Below are positions 17,452 through 32,700 of a stretch of DNA of 64,000 nt, piece after piece (the first letter of the stretch is position 1; each line of letters starts with the position of its first letter). The position numbers were made by a program, and so were the translations under genes. The stretch is taken from positions 17,012 through 81,011 of the forward strand of contig CAIRBK010000097.1 of the NCBI GenBank assembly GCA_903876795.1, given 5' to 3'. The stretch comes from an uncultured Verrucomicrobiota bacterium. GTDB taxonomy: Bacteria; Verrucomicrobiota; Verrucomicrobiia; Opitutales; Opitutaceae. Below the pieces are notes generated by a model, which did not search any database, was not told the origin of the DNA, and saw only the letters and a program-made list of their open reading frames with translations.

Positions 17452-18573
<1,122 letters not shown>

Positions 18574-18697
18574 GCAAAGTGAGTTGAAGACCGCCGCCGA
18601 CTGCGGCATTTGCGCGTTGCGAAGGCTTGCGCGAGCGGCTTGTGTAAGCCCGCTCGACGCGTGCCGAGGCAATCCTGCCTAGCGGTGTTGATCAAAC

Positions 18698-19732
18698 ATG
18701 GCCACGACGCTCTTCACTCAGAACACCATCGCGTGCATCTGGGATTTCGACAAGACCTTAATCCCCGAATACATGCAGTCTCCCTTGTTCCGTCGCTACG
18801 ACGTGAATGAGCAGAACTTCTGGCACGAAACCAACAGCCTCGTGGCCCACTACCGCCAGCGCGGCTACCAGCTTTCCGGGGAAATCGCCTACCTCAACCA
18901 CATCCTCACCCATGTGCTTGCGGGCCAGATGGCGGGCCTCAACAACCGCATCCTGCGGGAATGCGGGAGGGAAATTCGATTCTATCCGGGGATGCCGGTG
19001 TTTTTCGAGCGCAGCCGCAGCTTCGTGACCGAAAAGCCAGAATATCAAAAACACGAGATCACCCTGGAGCACTACATCGTGAGCACGGGCCTGGCCGAGA
19101 TGATCCGCGGCAGCGCGGCGGCCCCCTTGGTGGACGGCATCTGGGGATGCGAATTCGTCGAAAACCCGCTCCAGCCCGGCTTTCTCAAGCAGAAGGAACT
19201 CGACCTCGCCGCCGAGGCCGAAATCGCCCAGATCGGCATGGTCATCGACAACACCACCAAGACCCGGGCGATTTTCGAGATCAACAAGGGCACAAACAAA
19301 AACCCCGCCATCGACGTCAACGCCAACATCAGGCCGGAGGACCGTCGCATCCCGTTACAAAACATGATCTACATCGCCGACGGGCCGAGCGACATCCCCA
19401 GCTTTTCCGTGGTCAAGGGTGGCGGCGGCAAGGCCTACGCCGTTTACAATCCCGACTCCACCGCCGAATTCGAGCAAAACGACCGCCTGCGCCAGGTGGG
19501 CCGCATCGACCACTACGGCCCGGCCGATTACGACGAAAAGAGCCCCACGTCGCGTTGGCTGCGTCTGCAAATCCATAAGATATGCGACCGCATCGTGGCC
19601 GACCGCGAAGCCGCCGTCTCACAGCGCGTCACCCGTCCGCCGAAGCATCTTTCAAGCGCCGACGAGGCGGAAACCACCGCCCGTGCCGTCATGATCGACC
19701 GACAAACAACGTTCATCGACGAAGTGAAGTAA
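18698..19732 (+). CDS. HAD-superfamily hydrolase
   Basis: DFDKT motif I, YIVSTG, YIADGPSDIP motif IV. Confidence 0.8.
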   Translation: MATTLFTQNTIACIWDFDKTLIPEYMQSPLFRRYDVNEQNFWHETNSLVAHYRQRGYQLSGEIAYLNHILTHVLAGQMAGLNNRILRECGREIRFYPGMPVFFERSRSFVTEKPEYQKHEITLEHYIVSTGLAEMIRGSAAAPLVDGIWGCEFVENPLQPGFLKQKELDLAAEAEIAQIGMVIDNTTKTRAIFEINKGTNKNPAIDVNANIRPEDRRIPLQNMIYIADGPSDIPSFSVVKGGGGKAYAVYNPDSTAEFEQNDRLRQVGRIDHYGPADYDEKSPTSRWLRLQIHKICDRIVADREAAVSQRVTRPPKHLSSADEAETTARAVMIDRQTTFIDEVK

Positions 19733-19842: not shown

Positions 19843-20889
19843 TTAGGGGCTGGACGGGCTGACGATGATGGTGATGTCAGGAGTAGACGGAGTGCTAGGG
19901 ACGATTATTTCAGTAATGGTAGGCTTGGTACCAGGCTCAGTGGGCGTGGTCTGAACGTCAGGATCAACTTTGACCTCTGGCTGTGTCCGGATCGCCTCGC
20001 GCACCGCTTCTCTAAGGGACTGGTCGGCTCTAGCGTTGACAGAAAAAATCGCACCCGGGGCTGATTGACCGGCAAAGGTCTGAACCGTATCGACAGTGTT
20101 GGATACAATTGCCTTGGCAGCGGTAGAGTCGGTCTTGGCGAGCTCATTGGCGGCATTGGTCACGTTCGAGACAACGGACCTAAGGGTGGCGTTGGCACCC
20201 CTGTCCGCAGTTTCTCTGCTGACTTGAGCAATGATGGAAACAACCGCCACCGTGGCTTGGATAGACTCGGTGATGGCGGTTTTTTCTTCGGCAGTCGTGG
20301 CTGAGCTAATGGCCGAAGCGATTGAAGTGGAGACGCCCAGATTGGAATTGGCCGATTTACCTTCAGAAACGGTGACGGGGGCTTGGCCGTTGATCGCGAA
20401 GCTCACCGAACCGGTGTAGGTGTTGACGGTTACAAACACCTGGCCACCGCTGGCGAGCTTTACGGTGGTGGTGTAGGTGGTGCCGCGGGCGGCGGCCACG
20501 CCTTTCGGGGTGCGCACGCTGTAATTGTTGATGGCACGCTTCGACGGATCGAGCACGGAAACGGAAGTACCATTTTTGAGATCGATGACCGCCGTGCGCA
20601 CGCCCTCGGAGTTCACACTGTGGGTGCCGATCACCGCTGTGGTGAGACTGTCGAGACCCGTTTCGATGCCATCGTGAGACTTCACAACGATTTTGCTGCC
20701 GGCACCAGTGACAACGGTGGAACCCTCGGGCAGAACCTCACCCGGCACAGCGGGCTTTGAGGCTGCGCCACCGGGCAGGGAGACGGTGGCCGAACCGTTG
20801 ACGGAGGAAATCGTTGCCTGCTGTGCGGAAGCAATCACAGCTCCCGCCATGGCGGCGATGGACAACACAATTAGGCGGATTTTTTTCAT
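19843..20889 (-). CDS. Secreted FecR-domain protein with a Pro/Thr-rich tail
   Basis: Signal peptide MKKIRLIV..ASA; FecR-like V.TG.GS and VRTPKGVAAARGTTY motifs; P/T/S-rich C-terminus. Confidence 0.7.
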   Translation of the reverse strand: MKKIRLIVLSIAAMAGAVIASAQQATISSVNGSATVSLPGGAASKPAVPGEVLPEGSTVVTGAGSKIVVKSHDGIETGLDSLTTAVIGTHSVNSEGVRTAVIDLKNGTSVSVLDPSKRAINNYSVRTPKGVAAARGTTYTTTVKLASGGQVFVTVNTYTGSVSFAINGQAPVTVSEGKSANSNLGVSTSIASAISSATTAEEKTAITESIQATVAVVSIIAQVSRETADRGANATLRSVVSNVTNAANELAKTDSTAAKAIVSNTVDTVQTFAGQSAPGAIFSVNARADQSLREAVREAIRTQPEVKVDPDVQTTPTEPGTKPTITEIIVPSTPSTPDITIIVSPSSP

Positions 20890-21241: not shown

Positions 21242-21985
21242 TCAAGCCCGCAGCCGAGAGACCAGTTCACGCAATCGCACAGCCAGCACCTTACGATCTC
21301 CGCCCGCCGCCACCGCCTCGCCCCAAACCACACGGGCGCGCACCCACGGAAGGGTCGTGAAATTCCACAGGTGCGGCGCCAACGTCATGTCACCCCACCA
21401 ACACACCTCATGAGTCACCCGGCGACCGGCGGACGTTTTGTAGCTGATACCCGCCGGAATCACCGGCCAGCCATTCTGCACCGCCGGCTCCAGCAACGAT
21501 GGTTTGAACGGCAACACGTCCGCCCCATCGGTCGAGGTGCCTTCCAAAAAAACAACCACGGTCAACCGCTCGGTGATGACCGGGCCGATTTCGTCGGCTA
21601 TCCGGGCCACATCGCCGCGTCGGTTCCGATCAATAAAGCGCGTGCCCGCCTTCTCCGCAAACCAGCCGAACAAAGGCCAGGAACGCACTTCCCGCTTAGC
21701 CACAAAAACCACCGGCGTCAGCGAAGCCAGAACCAGGATGTCCAAATAGCCCAGATGGTTCGCGGCAATGATCGCCCCCCGGGCAGGCTCTCCGCGCGAT
21801 TCCACTTCGACCGCCAGCACCAATAGGGCACTTCTGCAAACGGACTGCAACCACCGTGCCTTCGCGCCCGCATCCTGCCGGTGCGACCGCCGCGCCGCAT
21901 AGTCGAAAGCCGAGCCCGCGATCAAGACCAACAACGCCACCAGGCGCCCCGCCCCGCGCACGTTGTTCCAGATTTTTTCCGTCAT
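21242..21985 (-). CDS. PlsC-type lysophospholipid acyltransferase (OlsA-like)
   Basis: NHLGYLD (HxxxxD), FVAKREV, FIDR, FLEGTSTDG..FK motifs. Confidence 0.88.
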   Translation of the reverse strand: MTEKIWNNVRGAGRLVALLVLIAGSAFDYAARRSHRQDAGAKARWLQSVCRSALLVLAVEVESRGEPARGAIIAANHLGYLDILVLASLTPVVFVAKREVRSWPLFGWFAEKAGTRFIDRNRRGDVARIADEIGPVITERLTVVVFLEGTSTDGADVLPFKPSLLEPAVQNGWPVIPAGISYKTSAGRRVTHEVCWWGDMTLAPHLWNFTTLPWVRARVVWGEAVAAGGDRKVLAVRLRELVSRLRA

Positions 21986-22004
21986 TCGAGTTCGCCGAGC
22001 AAAG

Positions 22005-22745
22005 TCACGCGGCGAACTTGCGCAACACCCGCGGCGGCATCGTCCGCAGATCCATCCAAGTCAAAAAATCGATGGTCTTGAACTCCCGGTCGAGCGCCGG
22101 CTCGCCGCAGATCGCCGCCCCCGCCGCCAGATACGCGGTCATCAAGCGCGGGATTCTCACCCCGAGGCGAGACCGCGACTCCACTTCGTCCTCGCTCGCC
22201 TCGCAACGCCACCCAGGCAGCGGACGCGTGCGCCACGGCTCCGCGACGAGGTTTTTTGCCGAAAGCTGCGCATAGGCCGCCAAACCCTCGGCCGCGTCCT
22301 GCGACGTGAGCGAGCTGCACCCGAGCAGGTAACGCGCCCCGCGTTCTTGCGCGTAGGTTGCGATCCCGCGCCACAACAGGCCCAGCACGCTTTGATTGCG
22401 ATGCGCCAACGCCACGCATGCCCGGCCCAGCTCCACCACTTCCCCCCGAACCGGCTCGAACGGGCCAAACTCAAACTCCCTCTCGCTGTAATAACCCACG
22501 CCCGATGCCGCCGCCGTCCGGCCGGTTTGCAGCCGATAGGTGCCCACCACCTCGCCGGTCCCCCGCTCGCGCACCAGCAGATGGTCGCACACCGCGTCGA
22601 ACTCATCCGCGTCCAGCCCGGAGGCAACCGCCGACGTCAACCCTTCACCCAGCTCCAGGTTGAACACCGAGAAGCGCAGCCTCTGCGCCTCGCTTATGTC
22701 GTCCGGCTCTTCGGCCAGTTTCAACTCATACAAGTCCGTGCTCAT
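22005..22745 (-). CDS. GNAT-fold N-acyltransferase (OlsB-like, N-acyl amino acid synthase)
   Basis: AQRLRFSVFNLELG, D.DEFDAVCDHL, VGTYRL, ELGRACV, YLLGCSS, P.LMTAYL..GA.ICGEPA.DREF..IDF; overlaps the upstream gene by ATGA. Confidence 0.85.
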   Translation of the reverse strand: MSTDLYELKLAEEPDDISEAQRLRFSVFNLELGEGLTSAVASGLDADEFDAVCDHLLVRERGTGEVVGTYRLQTGRTAAASGVGYYSEREFEFGPFEPVRGEVVELGRACVALAHRNQSVLGLLWRGIATYAQERGARYLLGCSSLTSQDAAEGLAAYAQLSAKNLVAEPWRTRPLPGWRCEASEDEVESRSRLGVRIPRLMTAYLAAGAAICGEPALDREFKTIDFLTWMDLRTMPPRVLRKFAA

Positions 22746-24355
22746 GATCGCGCCTTTTGCAGCAGTTCCAAAACCTCCTTCACCGTCGGCACGCGCACCC
22801 CGCGCGCCCGGTTGGCCGCGCCGATTGCAAACGCCAGCCGCCATTGCCGGCACAACACACGCCAGCCATGCCACACCGAGTGTCGCGGATCGTAAATGCT
22901 GGTTGCCTCCGAGGTGAGACCGTTCAGCTCGATCACCGTAATCTCGCCGCGCCGAAAGGCTTCGGGCGAGGGGGTGCGGACGTCGTAGCGTCCAAAATAA
23001 AAACCGTCGAAAGCCCGGCTCATGTTATCCACCGCGCAGACCAATTCCGGCGTCACCAGTTCCCCTCCGTCGAGAAACAAGGCTCCGCGGCAATGTGTGC
23101 CCAAATCGGTCAACGAGATGCGTGCCCCTGTCGGCGGCACTTCATCGAGCCGCGCGGCGAATTTATCCAAAAAGAAACTGCCCATGCATACTGCGCGGTC
23201 ATCGGCGAGGATCAGCTCCTCCAGCGTTCGCCGCCCGTCGCCGGTCACCTGGACCATGCGCTTGTCGGTCACCGCAAAAATCTCCCCGCGCTCCGCCCCG
23301 GGCCTGCGCACATAAAACACGCCGTACTCCGCGCCCGGCACGTAGCGTTGCACGATCAACGCCCGCGGTTCCGCCGCCAGCGCCGCGCGCGCCATCGCTT
23401 CCCCGAGCGCGATCACCACGCCCGCGCCGCGCTCGCCCACGTCGGGTTTCAACACCACGGGCCAGCCGTGTATGGCCGCCAGGGCGCGCACGACGGACAT
23501 GCGCGCAGCCGCATCGCCCGGCACCACCAGGCGCCACGCCGCCACCGCGTCGCCCGCGCCGGCCAGTCCCGCGAGAATTTCACTCTTGGACTCGCCCACC
23601 AGCCCGCCACCGGCCCCGATGCCCGGATTCACCGCCGCAAAAAGCGTCGCCCCCCGATGCCGTAACGCCAGCCAACAAGCATACGCGACCACCGGCGTGT
23701 ACACCGCCCACATCGGCCAGAATTCCCATCGCGTCAGCCGTCGCCACCCGCCGAGCAGCAGGCGGCGTCCACGCCAGGTAGCCGCCGTCACGATCAGTTT
23801 TAGGCCAACCGCCAGCGCCAGCGCTGCGATCACAAGCCAGCCCGCGACTTGTGTCCAGGCTTGCAACCAGCCCAGCGCGGCTTCGCCCGCGACTGCCGCC
23901 ACGCCGACCAGCAATGGCGTCCACACCGCGCAGGCCAATGCGAACCAGGGTGTGAACCGGCCCCACGGCATCCGCAGAATCCCGGCAGCCACATAGGTCG
24001 GCAGACGCGTGCCGGGCGTAAACCGGCTCGCCACGATCACCCACGCGCCGCGTCGTCCAAACCACCGCTCCGCCCAGGTTAATGCATCGGGCGACACGCG
24101 TCCGCGCAACGGCCACCGCACGAGCGCCGCGCGCCCAAGCCGGCGCCCGAGCAAGACCAGCAGCATATCGCCGGCGAAGATGCCCGCGAAGCACGCCGCC
24201 GCCGCCGGACCGAATGCAAGCTTGCCCGCCGCCACCAACAGCCCCGCCGCGATACAGGCGAGGTCCTCGCTCACCAGCGTCGCGAACGCCAGGGCGGCCA
24301 GCGCCAGCGGCAGGTTGTCCGCGCTCAACCAGTTTTGGACCGACTCGAGGCTCAT
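22742..24355 (-). CDS. DedA/VTT membrane domain fused to an ATP-grasp ligase-like domain
   Basis: N-terminal SEDLACI..GD..SRFTPGTRLPTYVAAG (DedA); C-terminal WPVVLKPDVGERG.GV, IVQRYV, GRYDVR..IELNG (ATP-grasp). Confidence 0.8.
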   Translation of the reverse strand: MSLESVQNWLSADNLPLALAALAFATLVSEDLACIAAGLLVAAGKLAFGPAAAACFAGIFAGDMLLVLLGRRLGRAALVRWPLRGRVSPDALTWAERWFGRRGAWVIVASRFTPGTRLPTYVAAGILRMPWGRFTPWFALACAVWTPLLVGVAAVAGEAALGWLQAWTQVAGWLVIAALALAVGLKLIVTAATWRGRRLLLGGWRRLTRWEFWPMWAVYTPVVAYACWLALRHRGATLFAAVNPGIGAGGGLVGESKSEILAGLAGAGDAVAAWRLVVPGDAAARMSVVRALAAIHGWPVVLKPDVGERGAGVVIALGEAMARAALAAEPRALIVQRYVPGAEYGVFYVRRPGAERGEIFAVTDKRMVQVTGDGRRTLEELILADDRAVCMGSFFLDKFAARLDEVPPTGARISLTDLGTHCRGALFLDGGELVTPELVCAVDNMSRAFDGFYFGRYDVRTPSPEAFRRGEITVIELNGLTSEATSIYDPRHSVWHGWRVLCRQWRLAFAIGAANRARGVRVPTVKEVLELLQKARS

Positions 24356-25053
24356 ACCCGCAACATCACGGTGTTCGCCGCAACCGCCTCGGGCCAGGCG
24401 ACCGCTTGGTAGGCCAACTCTCGCAGTGCTTCGACCGGTCTCACCCGCACGGAACACACGCTGCGCGTGGCCGCGTCGGGACGCCTCATTAAAACCGAGC
24501 CCGCTCCGTCGGACGGATCGTGCGCCCAGTGAAAAGTCGCCCCGCGTTCTTCGACCGCGCACGCCGCATAAGCCGCCGAGCGGCGGGCCCGTACCCCGGC
24601 CGGATCAAAAGAAGACGAAGTCAAAAACTCCGGAGCGGGCGCTTCGTGCAGCCTCCGTCCGTCCCAACGCGCGTGCACGCCGCCGGCGCGGGCGTCGATC
24701 GCCACCAGATGAAAGGGCGCGAACTCGGCCAGCGGCATCGTTCGCATCACCGCGACCGCCTCGGTGGCCCGCACTTCGCCGGCGACGGCGAGCGGCAGCC
24801 GCCCGCGGCTCAAGCGCCCGGTTTCGACGATGCCCCGGGGATAATCGTTGAGCACGCAGACCGTGAGGCCATGCGCGTTGAGCATGAGCCAGGTGCCGCC
24901 GTGGTCGCCGTCCACAGGTGCGAGGTGGCGCACACCGTTGGCCGACCTTCGCTCGGCCGGCGGGGATTCGGACGCGCGAGTGTTGTGTTCGTCGCGGTTA
25001 AAAAACAGGTCGTAGCCGCCCTCCCGGACGGCACGCCAGGTCAGCGTGCACAT
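24352..25053 (-). CDS. NRDE/TANGO2 family protein (Ntn-hydrolase fold)
   Basis: MCTL start, FNRDE signature, GGTW, SRGRL, PFHLV, TSSS. Confidence 0.88.
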   Translation of the reverse strand: MCTLTWRAVREGGYDLFFNRDEHNTRASESPPAERRSANGVRHLAPVDGDHGGTWLMLNAHGLTVCVLNDYPRGIVETGRLSRGRLPLAVAGEVRATEAVAVMRTMPLAEFAPFHLVAIDARAGGVHARWDGRRLHEAPAPEFLTSSSFDPAGVRARRSAAYAACAVEERGATFHWAHDPSDGAGSVLMRRPDAATRSVCSVRVRPVEALRELAYQAVAWPEAVAANTVMLRV

Positions 25054-25568
25054 GCGTCGGCGGCGGCCCGGGCCTTGAGGTGGCGAAGGGTCGAGGGCGC
25101 CAGGCCGAAGTCCTTCGGCAGCGTCTGGCCCGACAACTGGCAGATCACCCCGATCAACGCGTAATGATGCACGGTATGGCTGAGCAAAAACTCCAGTTCG
25201 CGCAACACGGTGGATTGTCCCCAGCCGAGTGCGCCCTCCACAGGACTGGACTCGGCACGCACGCGCAAGGCGCGGTCGTGGGTGAGGCGTTCGAGCCTTT
25301 CACCGATGGACACCAACTGCGCGATCGCATGGCCGGGGTCGTTTTCAATCAATGGATCGCGGGCGCGGGCCTCGTAGTCCACGACACCGGTCTCGATACC
25401 GCGCAGGAAGCTCTGGTAGTGTTCGATCACATGGCGCAGGTGTCCGCCGGCCGAGCTGTTGAAACACGCCGGCGTGCGTTCCGTGTAGCTTTCAGGATTC
25501 AGTCGGGACAGCAGATCGATGCTTTGGCGAAGGGCGGAGACATTGTCGCGGATGCTGTGTGCGATCAT
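25041..25568 (-). CDS. DinB/YfiT family metal-binding protein
   Basis: GGHLRHVIEHY and RELEFLLSHTVHHYALI histidine motifs. Confidence 0.82.
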   Translation of the reverse strand: MIAHSIRDNVSALRQSIDLLSRLNPESYTERTPACFNSSAGGHLRHVIEHYQSFLRGIETGVVDYEARARDPLIENDPGHAIAQLVSIGERLERLTHDRALRVRAESSPVEGALGWGQSTVLRELEFLLSHTVHHYALIGVICQLSGQTLPKDFGLAPSTLRHLKARAAADACAR

Positions 25569-25582
25569 GGCGGGCAAATCGC

Positions 25583-26029
25583 TCAGTTTTTGAGAATCTT
25601 GGGCCAGTTCTCATCGGCGCGGGCGATGTTGTCGGGAATGTTCTCCGACCACTGGCCCTGCACCTTCGGACTGTAGTTCAGGTAGAGGCGGTCGTTCACG
25701 ATTTTCCAGGCGTCCGGGTCGATGCCCGCCGTGTAACCGCGGCTGACCGCCCAGGCGCAGTAGCCGCCGTATTGCGGGGCGTATCCGGCGGGATCGATCT
25801 TGAACAACTCGCGGTTGGCCGCGCTGGCAAAATGCCACGCGGCGCCGTTCCAGTCGTAACTGAAATCGGAGTCGCCCTTCGTCGGTTTGCCGACCGTGAA
25901 ATAGGCCACGGGATCGTAGCCCTTGATGGCCACGCCAGTGAATGTGCTGTTGACCGGTTTCTCAGCACGGAGCGCCGCGGTGGCACACAAGGCGCACAAG
26001 GTCGCCGCCAGACGAATGAACATGTTCAT
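25583..26029 (-). CDS. Secreted YHS-domain protein (Cys form of the YHS (seleno)protein family)
   Basis: Signal peptide; AIKGYDPVAYF, WHFASAANRELF..P..YAPQYGGYCAWAV. Confidence 0.85.
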   Translation of the reverse strand: MNMFIRLAATLCALCATAALRAEKPVNSTFTGVAIKGYDPVAYFTVGKPTKGDSDFSYDWNGAAWHFASAANRELFKIDPAGYAPQYGGYCAWAVSRGYTAGIDPDAWKIVNDRLYLNYSPKVQGQWSENIPDNIARADENWPKILKN

Positions 26030-26047
26030 GAAGGGATCGAATTTGTA

Positions 26048-26470
26048 CTAAAGTCTGGAGCCGATTACCGGCAGGGCGCGGCGGTGCAGCCAGGCGATGA
26101 ACGCGCTGCCCAGCCACACGATCAGCGCCAGACCAAAAAGCAGGCCGCCGTCGTCCTGCACCACGATGCCGAGCTTGGTGAGATGGAAAAAAATCGCGCC
26201 GCTGATCACCCCGAGCGCAATCCCGGCACCAACCGGCACCAGTGACGGCACAAAAAGCAGCAAGGCCGCGATCAACTCGACCGCTCCGGAACCATAGCGC
26301 CCCCACGGCTCCTGGCCGACGGTCTTAAAAAAATAGACCGACTCGGGCGCGCCCGAAAATTTGAAGAACAGGGTCTGGAGAAGTATGACCGCGACGACGA
26401 CGCGGACAACCCAGCTGGCAGCGCGCAACGGCGCTGGTGACGTTCGGTGGACGATGGTGGACTTAAGCAT
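26048..26470 (-). CDS. DoxX family membrane protein
   Basis: Four TM helices; LQTLFFKFSGAPESV.FF, EPWGRYG.G..EL, GAIFFHL. Confidence 0.82.
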   Translation of the reverse strand: MLKSTIVHRTSPAPLRAASWVVRVVVAVILLQTLFFKFSGAPESVYFFKTVGQEPWGRYGSGAVELIAALLLFVPSLVPVGAGIALGVISGAIFFHLTKLGIVVQDDGGLLFGLALIVWLGSAFIAWLHRRALPVIGSRL

Positions 26471-26512
26471 GTGCGGATGAGAGCCGCCAGCCGCACATTT
26501 ATTCCCGGATAA

Positions 26513-27232
26513 TCAAAAAACGTTGCGCAAAGCCGCGCCGCCCTCGTCCGTGACCAGCACATAGGCATGGCGTGAGTCCGCCCACGAAACCGCCGCCAGC
26601 TTGCCGCGTTCGCGGAACATCGGTTCTGCGTCGCCCGGGAAATCCTCGCGACGCCCGATGTAGAGGTGGAATTCCCCGCCGCGCTCGAAGCAGGCCTCCA
26701 GCACGTCGTGACCGGCGATGCGCACGGTGCGGCATCCGTCGGCCTTGAGCCGGTCGATATCCATGTCCACCCCCGCAGCCAGCCGCGTCGCGGGATTGGA
26801 CAACAGCGCGCGCAGTTCTCCGCGGGCAAAGGGCATCCGTTTGTGATGGGACACCGAATCGACCTCCGCCATGGCGCCCCGGGCCAGTTGTTCGACGTCG
26901 GCTGGCGGTATCAGCACGGTCCAGAAGGCCGCAAGCCCGAGAATCAGGGTGACGCAAGCGGCCGTCGCGAGCACCTGCGGACGGCGCCAGAACGGCGGCA
27001 TAGGACCGAGGCTCGCACCCGATAAGATGGCGTCGCGCAATCCGGCCGGCGGTTGGACGGAGCGGAGTCTGGCGGCAACCACCTCGTCGAACGCACGCTC
27101 GCGCTCCAACCACTCGCCCAGCACGGGGTCGCGTCGCGCCTGCTCGAGCGCAGCCGCGAAGCACGGATCGGCGTCGTCCCGTCCGTCTGGACGACGCGCC
27201 TGGAGGATGAATTTGGCTTCGGTCGTGTTCAT
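26513..27232 (-). CDS. Putative membrane-anchored anti-sigma factor
   Basis: C-terminal part of ORF 26513..28018 from MNTTEAKF; one TM helix; overlaps the ECF sigma stop (ATGA). Confidence 0.7.
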   Translation of the reverse strand: MNTTEAKFILQARRPDGRDDADPCFAAALEQARRDPVLGEWLERERAFDEVVAARLRSVQPPAGLRDAILSGASLGPMPPFWRRPQVLATAACVTLILGLAAFWTVLIPPADVEQLARGAMAEVDSVSHHKRMPFARGELRALLSNPATRLAAGVDMDIDRLKADGCRTVRIAGHDVLEACFERGGEFHLYIGRREDFPGDAEPMFRERGKLAAVSWADSRHAYVLVTDEGGAALRNVF

Positions 27233-27771
27233 GACGTTTTCTTTTGCGAAAGGGGAAAAGGGACGACGTTCGACGCGGTTTCGCGCCGGGCCAGCGCCGT
27301 GCGCAACTGGGTTTTGCCGCGGGACAACCGCGACATCACCGTGCCGATCGGCACTTCGATCAGGTCGGCGATTTCCTGATATGGCAGGTCTTCCAGATAA
27401 AACAGGGTAAGCGGAACCCGGAACGTCTCGTCCACTTCCTGCAGCGCCTCGACGACGCCCTGGGCATCCATCTTCAGCGCCGGATCGTGGCAGGCCGTCG
27501 GCGGATCGTCTTCGCCGGGCGGCAAGTCGGCGATTGCGGTGACACGCGAGCCGCGTCGACGTCCGCGCAGGAATTCGCGGTAGAGCGTCGTGAAGAGCCA
27601 CGTCTTCACCTTCGAGCCGTCGCGCAGCGAGGAGCCCTTGGTGGCCCACACATAAAAGGTTTGCTGCGTAAGGTCGCAGGCGTCGGCGGAGTTGCGGGCC
27701 AGACTCAGCGCGAAGCGGTAAAGCGACGTGTAGTAGGCATCGACCAACTGCTTGAAAGCGTCTTGTCCCAT
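27229..27771 (-). CDS. ECF RNA polymerase sigma factor
   Basis: ACDLTQQTF, KTWLFT region 2; YQEIA..IEVPIGTVMSRLSRG region 4. Confidence 0.93.
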   Translation of the reverse strand: MGQDAFKQLVDAYYTSLYRFALSLARNSADACDLTQQTFYVWATKGSSLRDGSKVKTWLFTTLYREFLRGRRRGSRVTAIADLPPGEDDPPTACHDPALKMDAQGVVEALQEVDETFRVPLTLFYLEDLPYQEIADLIEVPIGTVMSRLSRGKTQLRTALARRETASNVVPFPLSQKKTS

Positions 27772-27913
27772 TGCATGTGTGAGCCGGGAACCGCCGGCTT
27801 ATTCCCGAAAAATCAACCGTCATGCGCTCCCGGGCGAGCATGGAGTCGCCGCGTCCTTGCCGGCGTTTTTTCTTCCGCCCGGAGCCCGACGGGCGCAGCG
27901 TCGTCCGTCCGAC

Positions 27914-30331
27914 ATGCTGCGTCTCCTGCTCCCGCCCAATCTCGCCGCCGCCGCCCCGCGCGACGCCATCGCCGTAAAGATCGAGCTTGATCCCTCGTCC
28001 GCACTTTCGCCCGCGCAATTCGCCGCCCTGGCCTTGCTCCAGCGTCTCTGCGGCGGCGCAGTCACGCCTCCGCCGTTTGTGCAGCTGAAGCGCACCCAGC
28101 TGCGCGACCTCGTCGCCGCGCTCAAAGGCCAGCCCGCCTTCGCCTTTGTCAACGCCCCCGCCGCACCGCTGCTCTGGATAGGCCCGCGCCTGCGCGGCGT
28201 GAGTGAATACCTTGACGAGGCCCCCTCGCCCCGACCTGTCGCCCCCCCGCCACGCCTGTCCACGCCCGCCGCAGGAGTTCCATCGCGCTCCGCCAAATCA
28301 TCCACGCCGCTCACCGTGGACGGCAGCGAGCATTTCCTCGCGATCACCCTGCCCTCGCGCGAACAAAGCGGCTACGCGACCGCACTCGACCTCGTCAAAT
28401 CCCACGGGTTCACCCTCGACGCCACCTCGCGCAAATGGTGGCTCCGCGACCGACACAAGACGCTCAACTTCCTCGCCACCCACCTCGGTGCCTTGCGCGA
28501 TGCTTACCACGCGGAGTTCACAGAAAACTTTGAGCGCAACACCGCCAAGCTCGCCGAGATCGAGGTTCAATGCGACATCGCCGAGACCGGCGGCGAGTTC
28601 ACGCTCACCCTCGGCCTGCACGCCGGCAAGGTCTCCGAGGACAACTTGCGCGCGGCCCTGGCCACCAACCGCGGCTACGTCGAGGACGCCGGGAAGGTCT
28701 TTCTCCTGCCGCCCGAAAAGGTCGCCCGCCTCGCCGCCGCCCAGCGCGCTCTGGCCGGCAGCGCCACCGCGCCCGCCGCCGCCCGCCGCACCTGGCGCGT
28801 GCCCACCGCCCGCGTCGCCGAGGTGCAGGAGCTCATCGAGGAACTCGCTCCGCATTACCAACCGCCCGCCGGTTGGAAGTCCCGCGGCGAGGCCCTGCGT
28901 AATCTCTCCACCCTTGCCCCCGCGCCCCTCCCGGCCGAACTCGCCGCATTGCTTCGTCCTTATCAACAAATCGGCGTCGCCTGGCTCTGGCACCTCCATC
29001 GCCACGGCCTCGGCGGCATCCTCGCAGACGAGATGGGCCTCGGCAAAACACTTCAGGCGATTGCCCTGCTCTCCGCGTTGCACGGCACCGCCTCGGCGGA
29101 AAAACGCCCGGCCCTCGTCGTATGCCCCGCCTCGTTGGTGGAAAATTGGCGAAGAGAGAACGCCCGCTTCGCGCCGACCCTCCGGGTCTTTGTCCACCAC
29201 GGCGGCACCCGCCTAGGCGGCGTGACCGAAGCCGCCGCCCACGATGTCGTGATCACGTCCTACGGCACACTGGCGCGGGACCGCGATCTGTTCGCCGACA
29301 TCCCGCTCTCCTGTCTCATCGCCGACGAGGCCCAGCATATAAAAAACCGCCGCACCCACAACGCCCAGGCTCTGCGCAGCCTCGACGCGCGCAGCCGCTT
29401 CCTGCTCACCGGCACGCCCGTGGAAAACTCCCTCGACGACCTGCGCGCGCTCTTCGACTTGCTGATGCCGGGCTACCTGGAAAAAGTCCCCGCCGGAACC
29501 CGCGGCGACGAACGCGGCTGGTTCGACGAGCGCCTGCGCGCCAAGACCGCCCCCTACCTGCTCCGCCGCACCAAGGCCGCCGTCGCCCCCGAGTTGCCCG
29601 ACAAAATCGAGCAGGTGATCTACTGTGAGCCGTCGCCGGCGCAGGCCCGCCTCTACGCCGAGTGGCGGCAGAAATCCGAACAGGAACTCGATGCCCTCGC
29701 CGCCGACGGAGCCTCGGAAAACTCCCTGCGCCTGGCCACGCTCACCCAGCTCCTCCGCCTGCGCCAGATCTGCTGCGACCCGCGACTGGTGTCCCCCGCC
29801 TCCCCTGCCGATCATTCGGCCAAGCTGGAAACCTTCCGCGAGCTCCTCGCCGAGGCGGTGGACGACGGCCATCGCCTGCTCGTGTTTTCCCAATTCACGT
29901 CGCTCCTTGCCCTGCTCCGCGCCGAGCTCGACGAACAGGGTCTGCCCTACTGTTACCTCGATGGAGCCACGCCGCAGAAACAGCGCCAGGCGGAAGTTGA
30001 TCGCTACAATCACTCGCCCGACATCCCGGTCTTCCTCATCTCCCTCAAGGCGGGGGGCACCGGCCTCAACCTCACGGGTGCCGACACGGTCGTGCATTTT
30101 GACCCGTGGTGGAATCCCGCCGTCGAGGCCCAGGCCACCGACCGCGCCCACCGCATTGGCCAAAAACGCGTGGTCACGAGCTACAAACTCATCTGCACCG
30201 GCACGGTGGAGGAAAAGGTGCTGCACATGCAGCAGACCAAGCGCGCCCTGCTGGCCGACGTCTTTGAGGCCAGCGACGCCACCAACGCCAGGCTGACGCT
30301 CGCCGACCTGGCCTCGCTGCTGAAGGAATAA
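27914..30331 (+). CDS. SNF2-family DEAD/DEAH helicase/ATPase
   Basis: LADEMGLGKT, DEAQHIKN, LTGTPVEN, LRR.K, GLNLTGAD, QATDRAHRIGQ. Confidence 0.92.
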   Translation: MLRLLLPPNLAAAAPRDAIAVKIELDPSSALSPAQFAALALLQRLCGGAVTPPPFVQLKRTQLRDLVAALKGQPAFAFVNAPAAPLLWIGPRLRGVSEYLDEAPSPRPVAPPPRLSTPAAGVPSRSAKSSTPLTVDGSEHFLAITLPSREQSGYATALDLVKSHGFTLDATSRKWWLRDRHKTLNFLATHLGALRDAYHAEFTENFERNTAKLAEIEVQCDIAETGGEFTLTLGLHAGKVSEDNLRAALATNRGYVEDAGKVFLLPPEKVARLAAAQRALAGSATAPAAARRTWRVPTARVAEVQELIEELAPHYQPPAGWKSRGEALRNLSTLAPAPLPAELAALLRPYQQIGVAWLWHLHRHGLGGILADEMGLGKTLQAIALLSALHGTASAEKRPALVVCPASLVENWRRENARFAPTLRVFVHHGGTRLGGVTEAAAHDVVITSYGTLARDRDLFADIPLSCLIADEAQHIKNRRTHNAQALRSLDARSRFLLTGTPVENSLDDLRALFDLLMPGYLEKVPAGTRGDERGWFDERLRAKTAPYLLRRTKAAVAPELPDKIEQVIYCEPSPAQARLYAEWRQKSEQELDALAADGASENSLRLATLTQLLRLRQICCDPRLVSPASPADHSAKLETFRELLAEAVDDGHRLLVFSQFTSLLALLRAELDEQGLPYCYLDGATPQKQRQAEVDRYNHSPDIPVFLISLKAGGTGLNLTGADTVVHFDPWWNPAVEAQATDRAHRIGQKRVVTSYKLICTGTVEEKVLHMQQTKRALLADVFEASDATNARLTLADLASLLKE

Positions 30332-30338
30332 GACCCCC

Positions 30339-30884
30339 TCAATCGAGCCCCAGGGTCTTCCGTCCGGCCTCGGAAATCATCTGAGGCGTCCACATCGGAT
30401 CCCACACGATATGAACCTTGGCCGACTCGACCGTGGGCAGCGACGCGATCTTCTGGCGGGCGTCCTCCGCGATCACCGGCCCCATGCCGCAGCCCGGCGC
30501 GGTCAGCGTCATCTTCACTTCCAAAACGTGCGTGCCCGCCGGCGTTTTCTCCACACTCAGATCATAGATAAGCCCGAGATCGACGATGTTGACCGGGATC
30601 TCCGGATCGAAGCAGGTCTTCAACGCCGACCACACCGCCGACTCGCTGAACTCGCCCGCCGCAACGTCCGGAGTCCCGGAGTCGAGCTTGGCCAGGTCGA
30701 AACCCTTGAGCGCGTCCGCGTGCTCGCGGGCGATGCGGAACAGGCCCGTGTCGGTGCGCACCGTCACGTTGCCGCCCAGCGTCTGCATGACGTGGGCCGA
30801 GGATCCGGCGGCAAGCGTGGCCGCGTCCCCGGCCGGGATGATCGTGGCCGGGATGTCCCGGGTGAGGATGAATTCGGATGACAT
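30339..30884 (-). CDS. sufT: SufT-like Fe-S cluster assembly protein
   Basis: QTLGGNVTV N-terminal domain; DPEIPVNIVDLGLIY and TLTAPGCGMG. Confidence 0.85.
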   Translation of the reverse strand: MSSEFILTRDIPATIIPAGDAATLAAGSSAHVMQTLGGNVTVRTDTGLFRIAREHADALKGFDLAKLDSGTPDVAAGEFSESAVWSALKTCFDPEIPVNIVDLGLIYDLSVEKTPAGTHVLEVKMTLTAPGCGMGPVIAEDARQKIASLPTVESAKVHIVWDPMWTPQMISEAGRKTLGLD

Positions 30885-30897
30885 GGGTTTAAAATGT

Positions 30898-32700
30898 TCA
30901 GCGCAGGTTGAGTTCGATGGGCAGGCGGGCGTAGATGCCGCGAGGATCGTTGAACTGCCCGAATACCTTCGCCTGGGATTCGATCCGGTGCATCACATGG
31001 GAGACCAAACCGCGATGCGCGGTCTCCACCGGCCGCACGTTTTGAAGCCAGCCTTCGAGCACCTCCGAGAAGGTCTGCGACAACGGGTACTCGGTCAGGC
31101 GGTAGTCATCCTTCACCTCGGCCGCCCTGGCGGCGAAGGCGATGGCGGCGTCGAGTCCGCCGAGTTCGTCCACCAGGCCGAGTTTCAGGGCCTCGCGGCC
31201 CGACCAAACGCGGCCTCCGGCGATCTTGCGAACGTCGTCTGGATCGAGTTCGCGACCTTCGGCGACCTTGCGGATGAACTCGCCGTAGATCCAATCGACC
31301 ATGCCCTGAAAGATCGCGAGTTCGGACTCGGTCTTCGGGCGGGCGATGGTGAAGATGTCCGCGTATTTGCCGGTCTTCACGCCGTCCCAAGTGATGCCGA
31401 GTTCATTGGCCAGTTTTTGAACGTCGAAGTGGATGCCCACCACCCCGATGGAACCGGTGATGGTCGTGGGCTCGGCGAAAATGCGGTCGCCGTAGGCCGA
31501 TATCCAATACCCGCCCGATGCCGCGTAGCTGCCCATTGAAACGATGACCGGCTTCTCCTGCGCCGCCAGGCGAAGTTCGCGCTGGATGTGCTCGGCGGCG
31601 GTGGCCGAACCTCCCGGGCTGTTCACGCGCAAAACGATCGCCCGGACATCGTCATCTTGACGCAGCGCGCGCAGCTCCCGGGCGAAACGATCACCGCCCA
31701 CCTCATCGACCACGCCTTCCCCGTCCACAATCGCCCCCTCGGCGTAAAGCACCGCGATCTGGTTCGAGCTGCTCCCGGCGTGTTCGGGCAACTGGCGGGC
31801 GTAATCAGCCAGGTTGATCTGTTTGAAGGGATCCGCCGGATCGGTGACTCCGGTCGAGGCTTTCAACTGCTCCAGCACCTCGTCGCGGTAGGCGAGCCGG
31901 TCCACCAATCGGGCCTTGAGGGCGGACTCGGGCTGGATCACACCCTCGGCGTCGATCAGCGCCTGAAACTTTTCCGGCGAGAGCCTCCTGTCGGCCGCCA
32001 GATCGGCGCGAAGGTCGCCCCAAAGATCGCCGAGCAGCTTTTCGGTCTGCTCGCGGTTGGCCGGGCTGAGATCCTTGCGCACAAACGGCTCGGCGTAGGA
32101 TTTGAACTCGCCGACCTTGGTCACCTGCACACCCACTCCGAAACGCTCGAATGCCCCGGCGAAAAACGTCGATTCGCTCGCCAGTCCCGGAACCACCAAT
32201 GAACCGTAGGGATCGAGGACGAGATCCGTCGCGGAGGCGGCCAGATAAAGGTCGCGCGTCGTCGCGTAGTCCAGGTAGGCCACCACCGGTTTCCCGGATT
32301 TTTTGAACGCGGCCAGCGCCGACCGCACCTCTGACAAAGCCGCGAAACCAGTCCCATAGCCGTCTGGCGAGAGGTTACCCAGCAACACCAATCCGGCAAT
32401 CCGTCCATCCTCGCCGGCCGCCTTCAAGGCGCGAGTCACCGTGCGCAACTGCAACGTACTGTCATCTCCGCCGCCAACCAACAACGCGCCCAGTCCACCT
32501 CCCTCAAAAGCGGGTGGCGAGTCCGTGATATTCGCGCCAAGATCAAACACCAGATAGGAGCCTGTTTCCACGGCGGCGTGAGGGGCGTGCTTCATGGTCG
32601 AGGCCACCACCATAAAGCCCAACGCCAGAGCCACCAGGCTGGTGATGGCGATCGCCAAAGCCGCCAGTGTGCCGAGTAACGACGCAAAGAAATGTTTCAT
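30898..32700 (-). CDS. sppA: Signal peptide peptidase SppA (long form)
   Basis: Tandem S49 domains; KSYAEP, LRVNSPGGS, AASGGYW, TGSIGV, GRVWSG. Confidence 0.93.
   Translation of the reverse strand: MKHFFASLLGTLAALAIAITSLVALALGFMVVASTMKHAPHAAVETGSYLVFDLGANITDSPPAFEGGGLGALLVGGGDDSTLQLRTVTRALKAAGEDGRIAGLVLLGNLSPDGYGTGFAALSEVRSALAAFKKSGKPVVAYLDYATTRDLYLAASATDLVLDPYGSLVVPGLASESTFFAGAFERFGVGVQVTKVGEFKSYAEPFVRKDLSPANREQTEKLLGDLWGDLRADLAADRRLSPEKFQALIDAEGVIQPESALKARLVDRLAYRDEVLEQLKASTGVTDPADPFKQINLADYARQLPEHAGSSSNQIAVLYAEGAIVDGEGVVDEVGGDRFARELRALRQDDDVRAIVLRVNSPGGSATAAEHIQRELRLAAQEKPVIVSMGSYAASGGYWISAYGDRIFAEPTTITGSIGVVGIHFDVQKLANELGITWDGVKTGKYADIFTIARPKTESELAIFQGMVDWIYGEFIRKVAEGRELDPDDVRKIAGGRVWSGREALKLGLVDELGGLDAAIAFAARAAEVKDDYRLTEYPLSQTFSEVLEGWLQNVRPVETAHRGLVSHVMHRIESQAKVFGQFNDPRGIYARLPIELNLR

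Follow-up and report, generated by a model that had tools for sequence, protein, structure and literature searches.

The DNA analysed here, a stretch of 64,000 nucleotides (nt; hereafter the window) from contig CAIRBK010000097.1 of an uncultured bacterium of the Opitutaceae (Verrucomicrobiota), carries at positions 21242–27771 nine open reading frames (ORFs) that all run in the same direction on the minus strand. In the order of reading, they encode an extracytoplasmic function (ECF) sigma factor, a putative anti-sigma factor, a DoxX-like membrane protein, a secreted YHS-domain protein, a DinB-fold protein, an NRDE/TANGO2-family protein, a fusion of a DedA membrane domain with an ATP-grasp domain, and two acyltransferases of the OlsB and OlsA families. 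The sequence is present in lake-water metagenomes, and its nearest relatives are Opitutaceae (Rariglobus-like). Reading the junctions directly, we found ATGA overlaps at the sigma/anti-sigma, NRDE/fusion and fusion/OlsB borders and a 13-nt overlap between the DinB and NRDE genes, with gaps of 42 nt (anti-sigma/DoxX), 18 nt (DoxX/YHS), 14 nt (YHS/DinB) and 19 nt (OlsB/OlsA). The G+C content at third codon positions (GC3) is uniform across all nine genes (0.75–0.83), as would fit real coding regions. An earlier note on this DNA, made from the letters alone, had described nine co-oriented genes with these overlaps, which was borne out; its domain identities, except that of the anti-sigma factor, were likewise confirmed by Pfam and NCBIfam, or, for the ATP-grasp domain, by sequence searches of the PDB and fold searches instead.

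The two genes at the end of the row encode the acyltransferases. The OlsB-family N-acyltransferase (22005–22745, 246 aa), a predicted lyso-aminolipid synthase, matched the full length of Pfam Acetyltransf_5 (PF13444, E-value 3.5e-29, profile positions 1–102 of 102), and its best NCBIfam matches were the OlsB equivalogs, with scores below cutoff (NF052554, 138.1 vs. 350; NF052555, 123.5 vs. 320). The OlsA-family (PlsC-type) O-acyltransferase (21242–21985, 247 aa) matched Pfam Acyltransferase (PF01553, E-value 3e-24), contains the HX4D motif (NHLGYLD) in its translation and was most similar to the OlsA equivalogs of NCBIfam, also below cutoff (131 vs. 300). Judged by its sequence, the window OlsB is a member of the OlsB family, with ornithine as a candidate substrate. 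It shares 55–62% identity with ordinary verrucomicrobial OlsB proteins from loci without the module of DinB, NRDE and fusion genes described below. An OlsB clade dedicated to the cluster was considered and rejected, as the window protein is closer to these module-free OlsB proteins than to OlsB from the acidobacterial clusters. The cultured Opitutaceae bacterium D2-102 encodes two tandem OlsB paralogues (59% and 55% identity to the window protein) between the fusion and OlsA (L188:11251-12885).

The gene preceding OlsB (22742–24355) encodes a protein in which a DedA/VTT membrane domain (approximately residues 1–235; 23651–24355) is followed by a C-terminal ATP-grasp domain of the amino-acid-ligase type (approximately residues 240–537; 22742–23638). 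The DedA domain was recognized by Pfam (VTT_dom, PF09335; 56.2 vs. a cutoff of 33.9, residues 38–152) and has a weak similarity to UptA (47, not reaching the equivalog cutoff of 250). It appears as a helical membrane region both in an AlphaFold (AF2) model of the whole fusion (predicted local distance difference test score, pLDDT, 86) and by transmembrane prediction. For the C-terminal ~300 residues, phmmer against the PDB returned cyanophycin synthetase 1 (CphA1, E-value 1e-7), and Foldseek returned CphA2, GshAB, CphA1 and D-Ala-D-Ala ligases (Ddl), all with a probability of 1.0. Cyanophycin synthetase proper was rejected as an identity, the TIGR02068 match (36.9 vs. 850) covering the G-domain core only (residues 283–383). 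No variation was seen among 47 homologues at K303, R456, D458, E476 and N478; by analogy to Ddl, K303 would be the ATP-binding lysine, with the R-x-D...E-x-N residues serving in catalysis or Mg binding. On both sequence and modelled structure, the domain thus falls within the carboxylate-amine ligase family. The nearest characterized ATP-grasp relatives activate the alpha-carboxylate that ends an amino-acyl or peptide chain and then add an amino acid to it.

A search of 1.84 billion representative sequences with the ATP-grasp domain gave 892 clusters (50% identity) at an E-value of at most 1e-30, in which the domain nearly always follows a DedA or hydrolase-DedA region at the C-terminus, in proteins of either ~530–600 aa (DedA and ATP-grasp) or ~800–900 aa. 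The long form carries an additional N-terminal alpha/beta-hydrolase (Pfam Abhydrolase_1), whose xSMGG nucleophile elbow is intact, and makes up ~60% of the fusion relatives in the loci that we collected. From hydropathy and the positive-inside rule, its chain would begin in the cytoplasm and continue through a signal-anchor helix, a periplasmic hydrolase and the DedA domain to a cytoplasmic ATP-grasp domain. Examples with the hydrolase behind a signal-anchor helix are found at L001:8972-10000 and L015:8912-9900. The database names of the fusion relatives are all generic ("VTT domain-containing", "DedA family", "alpha/beta fold hydrolase").

Upstream of the fusion lie the other two genes of the module. 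The NRDE/TANGO2-family protein (24352–25053, 233 aa) matched Pfam TANGO2 (PF05742, 33 vs. 22.6); the residues F18-N19-R20-D21-E22 are invariant, and Cys2 is conserved to at least 90%. As phmmer against the PDB gave nothing useful for either this protein or the DinB protein, a fold comparison was used for NRDE, in which its AF2 model (pLDDT 96) was most similar to human TANGO2 (8sv7, E-value 1.4e-10) and the structural-genomics protein CV2077, followed by isopenicillin-N acyltransferase (template-modelling score 0.76), bile-salt hydrolases and penicillin V acylases, indicating a fold like that of the hydrolases with an N-terminal cysteine nucleophile (Cys-Ntn). Acyl-CoA:isopenicillin-N acyltransferase, bile-salt hydrolases and penicillin V acylases are all Cys-Ntn enzymes whose reaction is the cleavage or exchange of an N-acyl amide bond. 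TANGO2 itself has been reported to bind acyl-CoA via the NRDE motif (PMC11867700), and a bacterial homologue, HtpA, has been tied to heme trafficking (PMC10470608). The DinB-fold protein (25041–25568, 175 aa) matched both DinB_2 (PF12867, 31.7 vs. 24.8) and DinB (PF05163, 27.3 vs. 23) and ends in a C-terminal FGxAPST motif. Its invariant residues are H43, H46, H131, H134, H135, R45, R68, R70, R123 and E124; the five histidines and four arginines suggest a metal site and an anionic substrate. The protein is probably metal-dependent.

The DoxX-like protein (26048–26470, 140 aa) has four predicted hydrophobic helices and a score only marginally above the Pfam DoxX cutoff (24.3 vs. 23.6), with DoxX_2 below cutoff. 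It is very highly conserved, sharing 60–75% identity with copies from Acidobacteriota. The YHS-domain protein (25583–26029, 148 aa) was assigned by NF041384 (168.5 vs. 70) and Pfam YHS, has an N-terminal signal-like hydrophobic segment and represents the cysteine form of a family annotated as "(seleno)protein". The YHS family includes selenoproteins (PMC9312934; NF041384). Selenocysteine was ruled out here, as C91 (in GGYCAW) is invariant in all 37 homologues examined and no in-frame TGA is present. Both the DoxX and the YHS gene accompany the module across phyla.

The row begins with an ECF (group IV) sigma-70 factor (27229–27771, 180 aa), in which Pfam recognized Sigma70_r2 and Sigma70_r4_2 and which scored 71.5 against the cutoff of 42.9 of TIGR02937 (sigma70-ECF). 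The following gene (26513–27232) encodes a 239-aa protein with a single predicted transmembrane helix (residues 90–108). The earlier note had called the two a sigma/anti-sigma pair; the first half of this call was confirmed by Pfam and NCBIfam, while the family searches returned nothing significant for the partner, the best being a weak match to DUF3379 (E-value 0.012). Throughout the Opitutaceae relatives its gene comes after that of the sigma factor, and we infer the anti-sigma function from this position and the predicted helix.

Alignment of the sigma-upstream regions of 12 Opitutaceae loci gave the motif GGAATA-N15-(G/T/C)CTC, i.e. GGAATA-N15-BCTC. A motif scan of the 64 kb of the window found exactly two copies, compared to 0.12 expected, and no shuffled sequence reached two. 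The first, P1 (GGAATAAGCCGGCGGTTCCCGGCTC; 27781–27805, minus strand), ends 9 nt before the ATG of the sigma gene, and the second, P2 (GGAATAAATGTGCGGCTGGCGGCTC; 26481–26505, minus strand), lies inside the 42-nt gap between the anti-sigma and DoxX genes, its end 10 nt short of the DoxX ATG. The sigma-upstream copy is found, at a distance of 9–11 nt, in all 12 loci (L001-L006, L008, L009, L011, L012, L088 and L092), and the DoxX-upstream copy in at least six (L004, L009, L010, L011, L061 and L092) as well as at the corresponding position in L006 and L088. Across 2.43 Mb of related loci the motif occurs only 32 times, mostly at these sigma- and DoxX-upstream positions. Its rarity, its conservation and its distance of only 9–10 nt to the start codons make it probable that two sigma-dependent promoters drive the genes and give near-leaderless mRNAs; P1 is likely autoregulatory. 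The earlier note had expected one transcript; with a second ECF-type motif in the anti-sigma/DoxX gap, there are probably two sigma-dependent units instead. The sigma/anti-sigma pair and the seven-gene unit from DoxX to OlsA are thus better regarded as a small regulon, in which read-through is possible, than as one obligatory transcript. A scan of the region for sigma-70 promoters gave no match.

Terminator-like matches were at background level (12 vs. 9.3 expected). One of them, a GC hairpin with a T-run in the last anti-sigma codons just before P2 (26525–26538, minus strand), could be a partial terminator between the two units and, given that background, was not relied upon. In the neighbourhood scans, the sigma/anti-sigma pair was found in Opitutaceae loci only. 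ECF control, as proposed in the earlier note, is therefore a lineage-specific overlay on the module: the conserved motif upstream of both sigma and DoxX supports it within this family, but it does not extend to the system as a whole. In the locus L010, where no sigma/anti-sigma pair lies beside DoxX, the DoxX-proximal motif is nevertheless kept, and another copy points at a gene (L010:6076-6932) that immediately precedes DinB-NRDE and encodes a secreted protein with DUF1223 (CxxC); these copies hint at a wider regulon.

Conservation of the gene neighbourhood was surveyed among top-scoring species representatives from three anchors, namely the fusion (135 relatives, 80 loci), an OlsB alignment (at least 584 relatives) and a DinB alignment (at least 590 relatives). 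A genome scan with the single NRDE sequence gave 2 loci, and the later scans were alignment-based. Within 10 kb of the fusion, the 51 loci with adequate flanks contained OlsB in 39 cases, OlsA in 34, DinB in 33 and NRDE in 31, followed by DoxX (18), YHS (16) and sigma (9), and every fusion-anchored locus had OlsB/OlsA and/or the DinB/NRDE pair. The 50 DinB-anchored loci showed an even tighter association with the fusion (44) and NRDE (43), with OlsB in 22, YHS in 19 and DoxX in 15. From the OlsB side, most loci were plain OlsB(-OlsA), and the fusion was found in 11 of 48; among those 11, DinB was present in 11 and DoxX in 10. The triad of fusion, DinB and NRDE occurs in hundreds of species from many phyla, mainly Verrucomicrobiota, Acidobacteriota, Gemmatimonadota and Planctomycetota, and in at least one assembly it lies on a separate contig from the OlsB-OlsA pair (L039, L117).

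The order of the genes differs between lineages. Opitutaceae have either the order of the window or DinB-NRDE...sigma-antisigma-DoxX-YHS-fusion-OlsB-OlsA, whereas the order is OlsB-OlsA-DinB-NRDE-fusion in Blastocatellia, Gemmatimonadota and the planctomycete Engelhardtia, and OlsB-OlsA-fusion, preceded by a ferric-reductase/Rieske gene and a gene of unknown function, in Thermoanaerobaculia. In Limisphaerales, Chthoniobacterales, Terriglobia and Burkholderiales, a second arrangement, YHS-DoxX-DinB-fusion-NRDE, stands beside OlsB. Loci of the Solibacter/Bryobacterales type have a 591-aa bifunctional OlsF-like protein and DoxX in place of OlsB/OlsA; one such protein (Acyltransferase and Acetyltransf_5) is encoded beside DoxX at L058:12459-14234, with further cases in L062, L060 and L063. 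The arrangement in the window is far beyond chance, its genes being found together in dozens of genomes from several phyla. The earlier note had named a lack of conservation of the acyltransferase pair beside the other genes as refuting its reading; when this was checked, the linkage of the pair to the DoxX/YHS/DinB/NRDE/fusion genes held across phyla.

The conserved core of the system is DinB, NRDE and the (alpha/beta-hydrolase-)DedA-ATP-grasp protein, with DoxX and YHS as frequent companions; OlsB, OlsA or OlsF are the commonest neighbours of this core but are far more widespread than the module. Most OlsB loci are without the module, while OlsB is the commonest neighbour of the fusion; in relation to aminolipid synthesis the triad thus behaves like an optional accessory, and such an asymmetry would be expected of a module that acts on what the synthases make. 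To our knowledge, the known ornithine-lipid-modifying enzymes have likewise been described only from particular bacteria.

Ferric-reductase-transmembrane/Rieske fusions together with a Pfam-less protein of ~250–300 aa were found near the cluster in Thermoanaerobaculia and some Opitutaceae (L064:4813-7178; L006:14020-15863), and genes for GMC oxidoreductases and VOC/glyoxalase proteins recur near it in loci from Acidobacteriota. Ferric-reductase/Rieske, family f8, GMC oxidoreductase and VOC genes were all sought in the window, and none is present there.

From gene context and structure, we tentatively favour, at somewhat short of an even chance, an aminolipid cluster switched by the ECF sigma factor, with a module for ATP-dependent extension of the head group of the OlsBA product and for its translocation. 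While the anatomy, conservation, fold relationships and promoter motif are as observed above, we infer every chemical step of the following scheme. An envelope signal would free the sigma factor from its membrane-bound anti-sigma factor, and the sigma factor would then fire P1 and P2, which are nearly identical, as the motif and its conservation suggest. By family membership, OlsB would attach a 3-hydroxy fatty acid to the amino group of an amino acid (most likely ornithine or lysine), and OlsA would add the second acyl chain, giving an acyloxyacyl aminolipid. The ATP-grasp domain, tethered by DedA at the inner face of the membrane, may convert the free alpha-carboxylate on the head group of the lipid to an acyl-phosphate and then ligate an amine or amino acid to it; its closest relatives, cyanophycin synthetase, glutathione synthetase and RimK, do likewise to peptide C-termini. 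The DedA domain could present the lipid to the ligase and/or move the product to the outer leaflet, in a coupling like that of MprF. In the long-form relatives, the predicted periplasmic alpha/beta-hydrolase would act on the translocated lipid. NRDE, with its fold of a Cys-Ntn amidase/acyltransferase, and the putative metalloprotein DinB may trim, exchange or edit an amide-linked group, and the membrane protein DoxX and the secreted YHS protein with its invariant cysteine would form a companion pair at membrane and periplasm that may handle redox or metal. A more specific version, which we regard as possible but doubtful, is that the (alpha/beta-hydrolase-)DedA-ATP-grasp protein, DinB and NRDE together constitute a trans-membrane lipid-editing machine, in which the ATP-grasp domain would add an amino acid, a taurine-like amine or a short peptide to the carboxyl group of the OlsBA/OlsF aminolipid, DedA would flip the product, and the periplasmic and cytoplasmic hydrolases would remodel it.

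Several observations weigh against head-group extension of an OlsBA product as the function of the window cluster. As both OlsB and OlsA score well under their equivalog cutoffs, the amino-acid substrate is uncertain. The fusion of the window is of the short form, beginning directly with the DedA domain, although most relatives carry the hydrolase, and no alpha/beta-hydrolase homologue was found elsewhere in the window. The proposal leaves DinB, DoxX and YHS largely without an explained role. The sequencing runs that contain the window sequence are of metagenomic DNA only; an RNA run was sought and not found. The loci counted above are phylogenetically non-independent, and many are contigs of metagenome-assembled genomes. 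Finally, OlsB is absent from the flank in 12 of the 51 fusion-anchored and in more than half of the DinB-anchored loci, and with so many triads lacking a nearby OlsB, the triad could serve another membrane substrate.

The last point leads to the strongest alternative, namely that the triad is a self-contained envelope system and that OlsB and OlsA are adjacent to it through a shared stress response only. Its substrate could then be the head group of a phospholipid, an intermediate linked to polyprenyl phosphate, or a peptide or poly-amino-acid that is secreted or anchored to a lipid. Besides the 12 fusion loci without OlsB, this is consistent with the internal association of the triad in the DinB-anchored loci being tighter (44/50 and 43/50) than its association with OlsB (22/50), with the DedA proteins being best known for polyprenyl-phosphate recycling (the fusion has its weak UptA similarity), and with the CphA and RimK relatives of the ATP-grasp domain being processive polymerases. 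However, OlsB/OlsA/OlsF-like genes are by far the commonest conserved neighbours of the triad, in at least five phyla and several gene orders and including replacement by OlsF, and their recurrence in this manner makes shared regulation alone a poor explanation; in the window, moreover, the fusion and OlsB genes overlap by 4 nt. We therefore consider a self-contained triad unlikely, if still deserving of serious attention.

A third possibility is a system for redox, thiol or metal stress, in which DoxX, YHS and DinB would handle a thiol, metal or oxidant, the lipid genes would adjust the membrane in parallel, and the sigma factor would sense such stress. Proteins of the DoxX, YHS and DinB families have been linked to the chemistry of quinones, thiols or metals. 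The selenoprotein members of the YHS family and the invariance of C91 would fit this idea, as would the ferric-reductase/Rieske, GMC oxidoreductase and DUF1223 (CxxC) neighbours of the relatives, one DUF1223 gene having the ECF motif upstream. We find it improbable, since DinB is tied to the fusion and NRDE (44 and 43 of 50 loci) far above DoxX (15) or YHS (19), the window cluster encodes no thiol-biosynthetic or disulfide-exchange enzyme, and the match to Pfam DoxX is itself marginal.

The hydrolase-DedA-ATP-grasp protein could also be an alternative first-step synthase that joins a fatty-acid carboxylate to an amino acid in the manner of OlsH, with NRDE and DinB supplying or editing acyl groups and OlsB being paralogous or complementary. 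ATP-grasp chemistry can activate any carboxylate, the alpha/beta-hydrolase could free a fatty acid, some loci have the triad without OlsB, and OlsH has recently been recognized as a third route to lyso-ornithine lipid, one that depends on ATP (PMC12971839). The nearest relatives of the ATP-grasp domain, however, use alpha-carboxylates of amino acids or peptides and not fatty acids, the hydrolase is predicted to face the periplasm, away from the pools of acyl-acyl carrier protein and acyl-CoA, and the frequent tight coupling to both OlsB and OlsA favours sequential over redundant functions, which together make a first-step synthase distinctly improbable. That the nine genes are neighbours by chance, or are miscalled ORFs without a functional unit, is given a vanishingly small likelihood, being effectively refuted by the recurrent synteny in dozens of genomes together with the 4-nt and 13-nt overlaps, the uniformly high GC3 and the significant family matches of eight of the nine proteins.

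Aminolipids are widespread phosphorus-free membrane lipids linked to stress resistance and host sensing. A review from March 2026 lists three routes to ornithine lipid (OlsBA, OlsF and OlsH) and five modifications of it; it describes the transfer of taurine to the ornithine-lipid carboxyl group in cerilipin as ATP-dependent with the gene unknown, and Ser-Gly and Orn-Ser-Gly head groups as existing without a named ligase (PMC12971839). The cluster is real, and no published description of it was found. In the literature searched, no paper joined DedA and ornithine lipid, OlsB and ATP-grasp co-occurred incidentally in a single review, and no description of the system appeared under TANGO2/NRDE with aminolipid, YHS with DoxX, or Opitutaceae with aminolipids; the earlier note knew of no characterized pathway of this composition, and these searches gave none.

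With an ATP-grasp domain that is joined to a DedA domain and whose gene is linked to those of OlsB/OlsA or OlsF in many phyla, the cluster is a testable candidate for head-group extension. If this function is true, it would provide the first genes for extending aminolipid head groups with the use of ATP, the reaction class of cerilipin and flavolipin, and a concrete enzymatic role for the TANGO2 family in lipid amide metabolism. TANGO2 is a human disease gene whose function is disputed between acyl-CoA/lipid and heme; one of its bacterial homologues would thereby be placed in a lipid-amide operon, and the fusion of a DedA domain to an enzyme would bear on what DedA proteins transport. The cluster also offers what appears from its sequence to be an ECF sigma regulon in Verrucomicrobiota with a clear promoter motif and leaderless transcripts. 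The predictions are directly testable, as cultured carriers exist: Rariglobus hedericola, Horticoccus sp. 23ND18S-11, Opitutaceae bacterium D2-102, Pelagicoccus mobilis KCTC 13126 and Engelhardtia mirabilis Pla133.

The cluster is flanked on the sigma side by a gene for an SNF2-family helicase (SNF2-rel_dom and Helicase_C; 27914–30331, plus strand), divergent from sigma. Relatives such as L005 have the SNF2 gene at the syntenic place, in L005 with the ECF motif on the reverse strand ~120 nt upstream of it; no such copy is present in the window. On the other side, 353 nt downstream of OlsA, a gene on the minus strand (19843–20889) encodes a secreted protein that has a FecR domain and is rich in Thr, Ser and Val over its C-terminal half; it is probably a separate unit as it is not conserved beside the cluster in relatives. 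Further flanking ORFs (17452–18672, minus; 18698–19732, plus; 30339–30884, minus; 30898–32700, minus) are housekeeping-like and were listed as a class-I release-factor-like protein (GGQ), a HAD-like hydrolase, a FeS_assembly_P-domain protein and a large SppA-like signal-peptide-peptidase, the release-factor and SppA identities coming from reading of the translations only.

Compared to known systems, the regulatory part resembles autoregulated ECF/anti-sigma modules with a co-located target operon, with which it shares the sigma-2 and sigma-4 domains, a coupled single-pass putative anti-sigma factor and a common -35/-10-like motif upstream of both sigma and the adjacent operon. It differs in that its anti-sigma candidate belongs to no curated family and that both motifs are separated from the start codons by only 9–10 nt, so that the mRNAs would be near-leaderless. 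We met no report in which aminolipid genes are the target of an ECF factor, although no search was aimed at this point. The acyltransferase part corresponds to the OlsB/OlsA pathway of the Sinorhizobium meliloti type, having adjacent genes for a GNAT N-acyltransferase and a PlsC-type O-acyltransferase with HX4D, and relatives of the cluster carry an OlsF-like fusion instead, as in the OlsF variant. In contrast to that pathway, the window genes are embedded with five more conserved genes and the ECF sigma/anti-sigma pair, and no ols locus with such a gene content was found in the literature searched.

NRDE shares the NRDE motif, the N-terminal Met-Cys and the alpha-beta-beta-alpha fold with TANGO2/HtpA and the Cys-Ntn amidases and acyltransferases. 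It is only ~15% identical to TANGO2, and whereas the published role of bacterial HtpA is heme trafficking, the gene context here points to lipid amide metabolism. The ATP-grasp domain resembles the ligases that extend a C-terminal carboxylate (the CphA G domain, the glutathione-synthetase domain of GshAB, and RimK), with its best matches by sequence to CphA1 (1e-7) and by fold to CphA2, GshAB and CphA1, and keeps the lysine and the R-x-D...E-x-N residues; identity, however, is only ~20% over ~260 columns, a membrane domain precedes what is a reduced form of the usual N-terminal substrate-binding subdomain, and the M and N domains of CphA are absent.

The fusion as a whole is reminiscent of MprF in architecture only, a cytoplasmic domain predicted to modify head groups being combined in one polypeptide with a polytopic membrane domain whose family has been implicated in the translocation of lipids. 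Pfam and NCBIfam scans returned no MprF-related family, and the fusion differs from MprF in consisting of DedA/VTT and an ATP-grasp domain that would use ATP and not aminoacyl-tRNA, with a predicted periplasmic hydrolase added in most relatives. A likeness in chemistry is to the cerilipin (tauro-ornithine lipid) synthase activity of Gluconobacter cerinus and the Ser-Gly extension of flavolipin in Bacteroidota, both of which extend the head group at the aminolipid carboxyl by genes that are unknown. The carriers found here belong mainly to the four phyla named above, and no link to those organisms was found; an ATP-grasp enzyme encoded beside olsBA would nonetheless be the right kind of enzyme for such chemistry.

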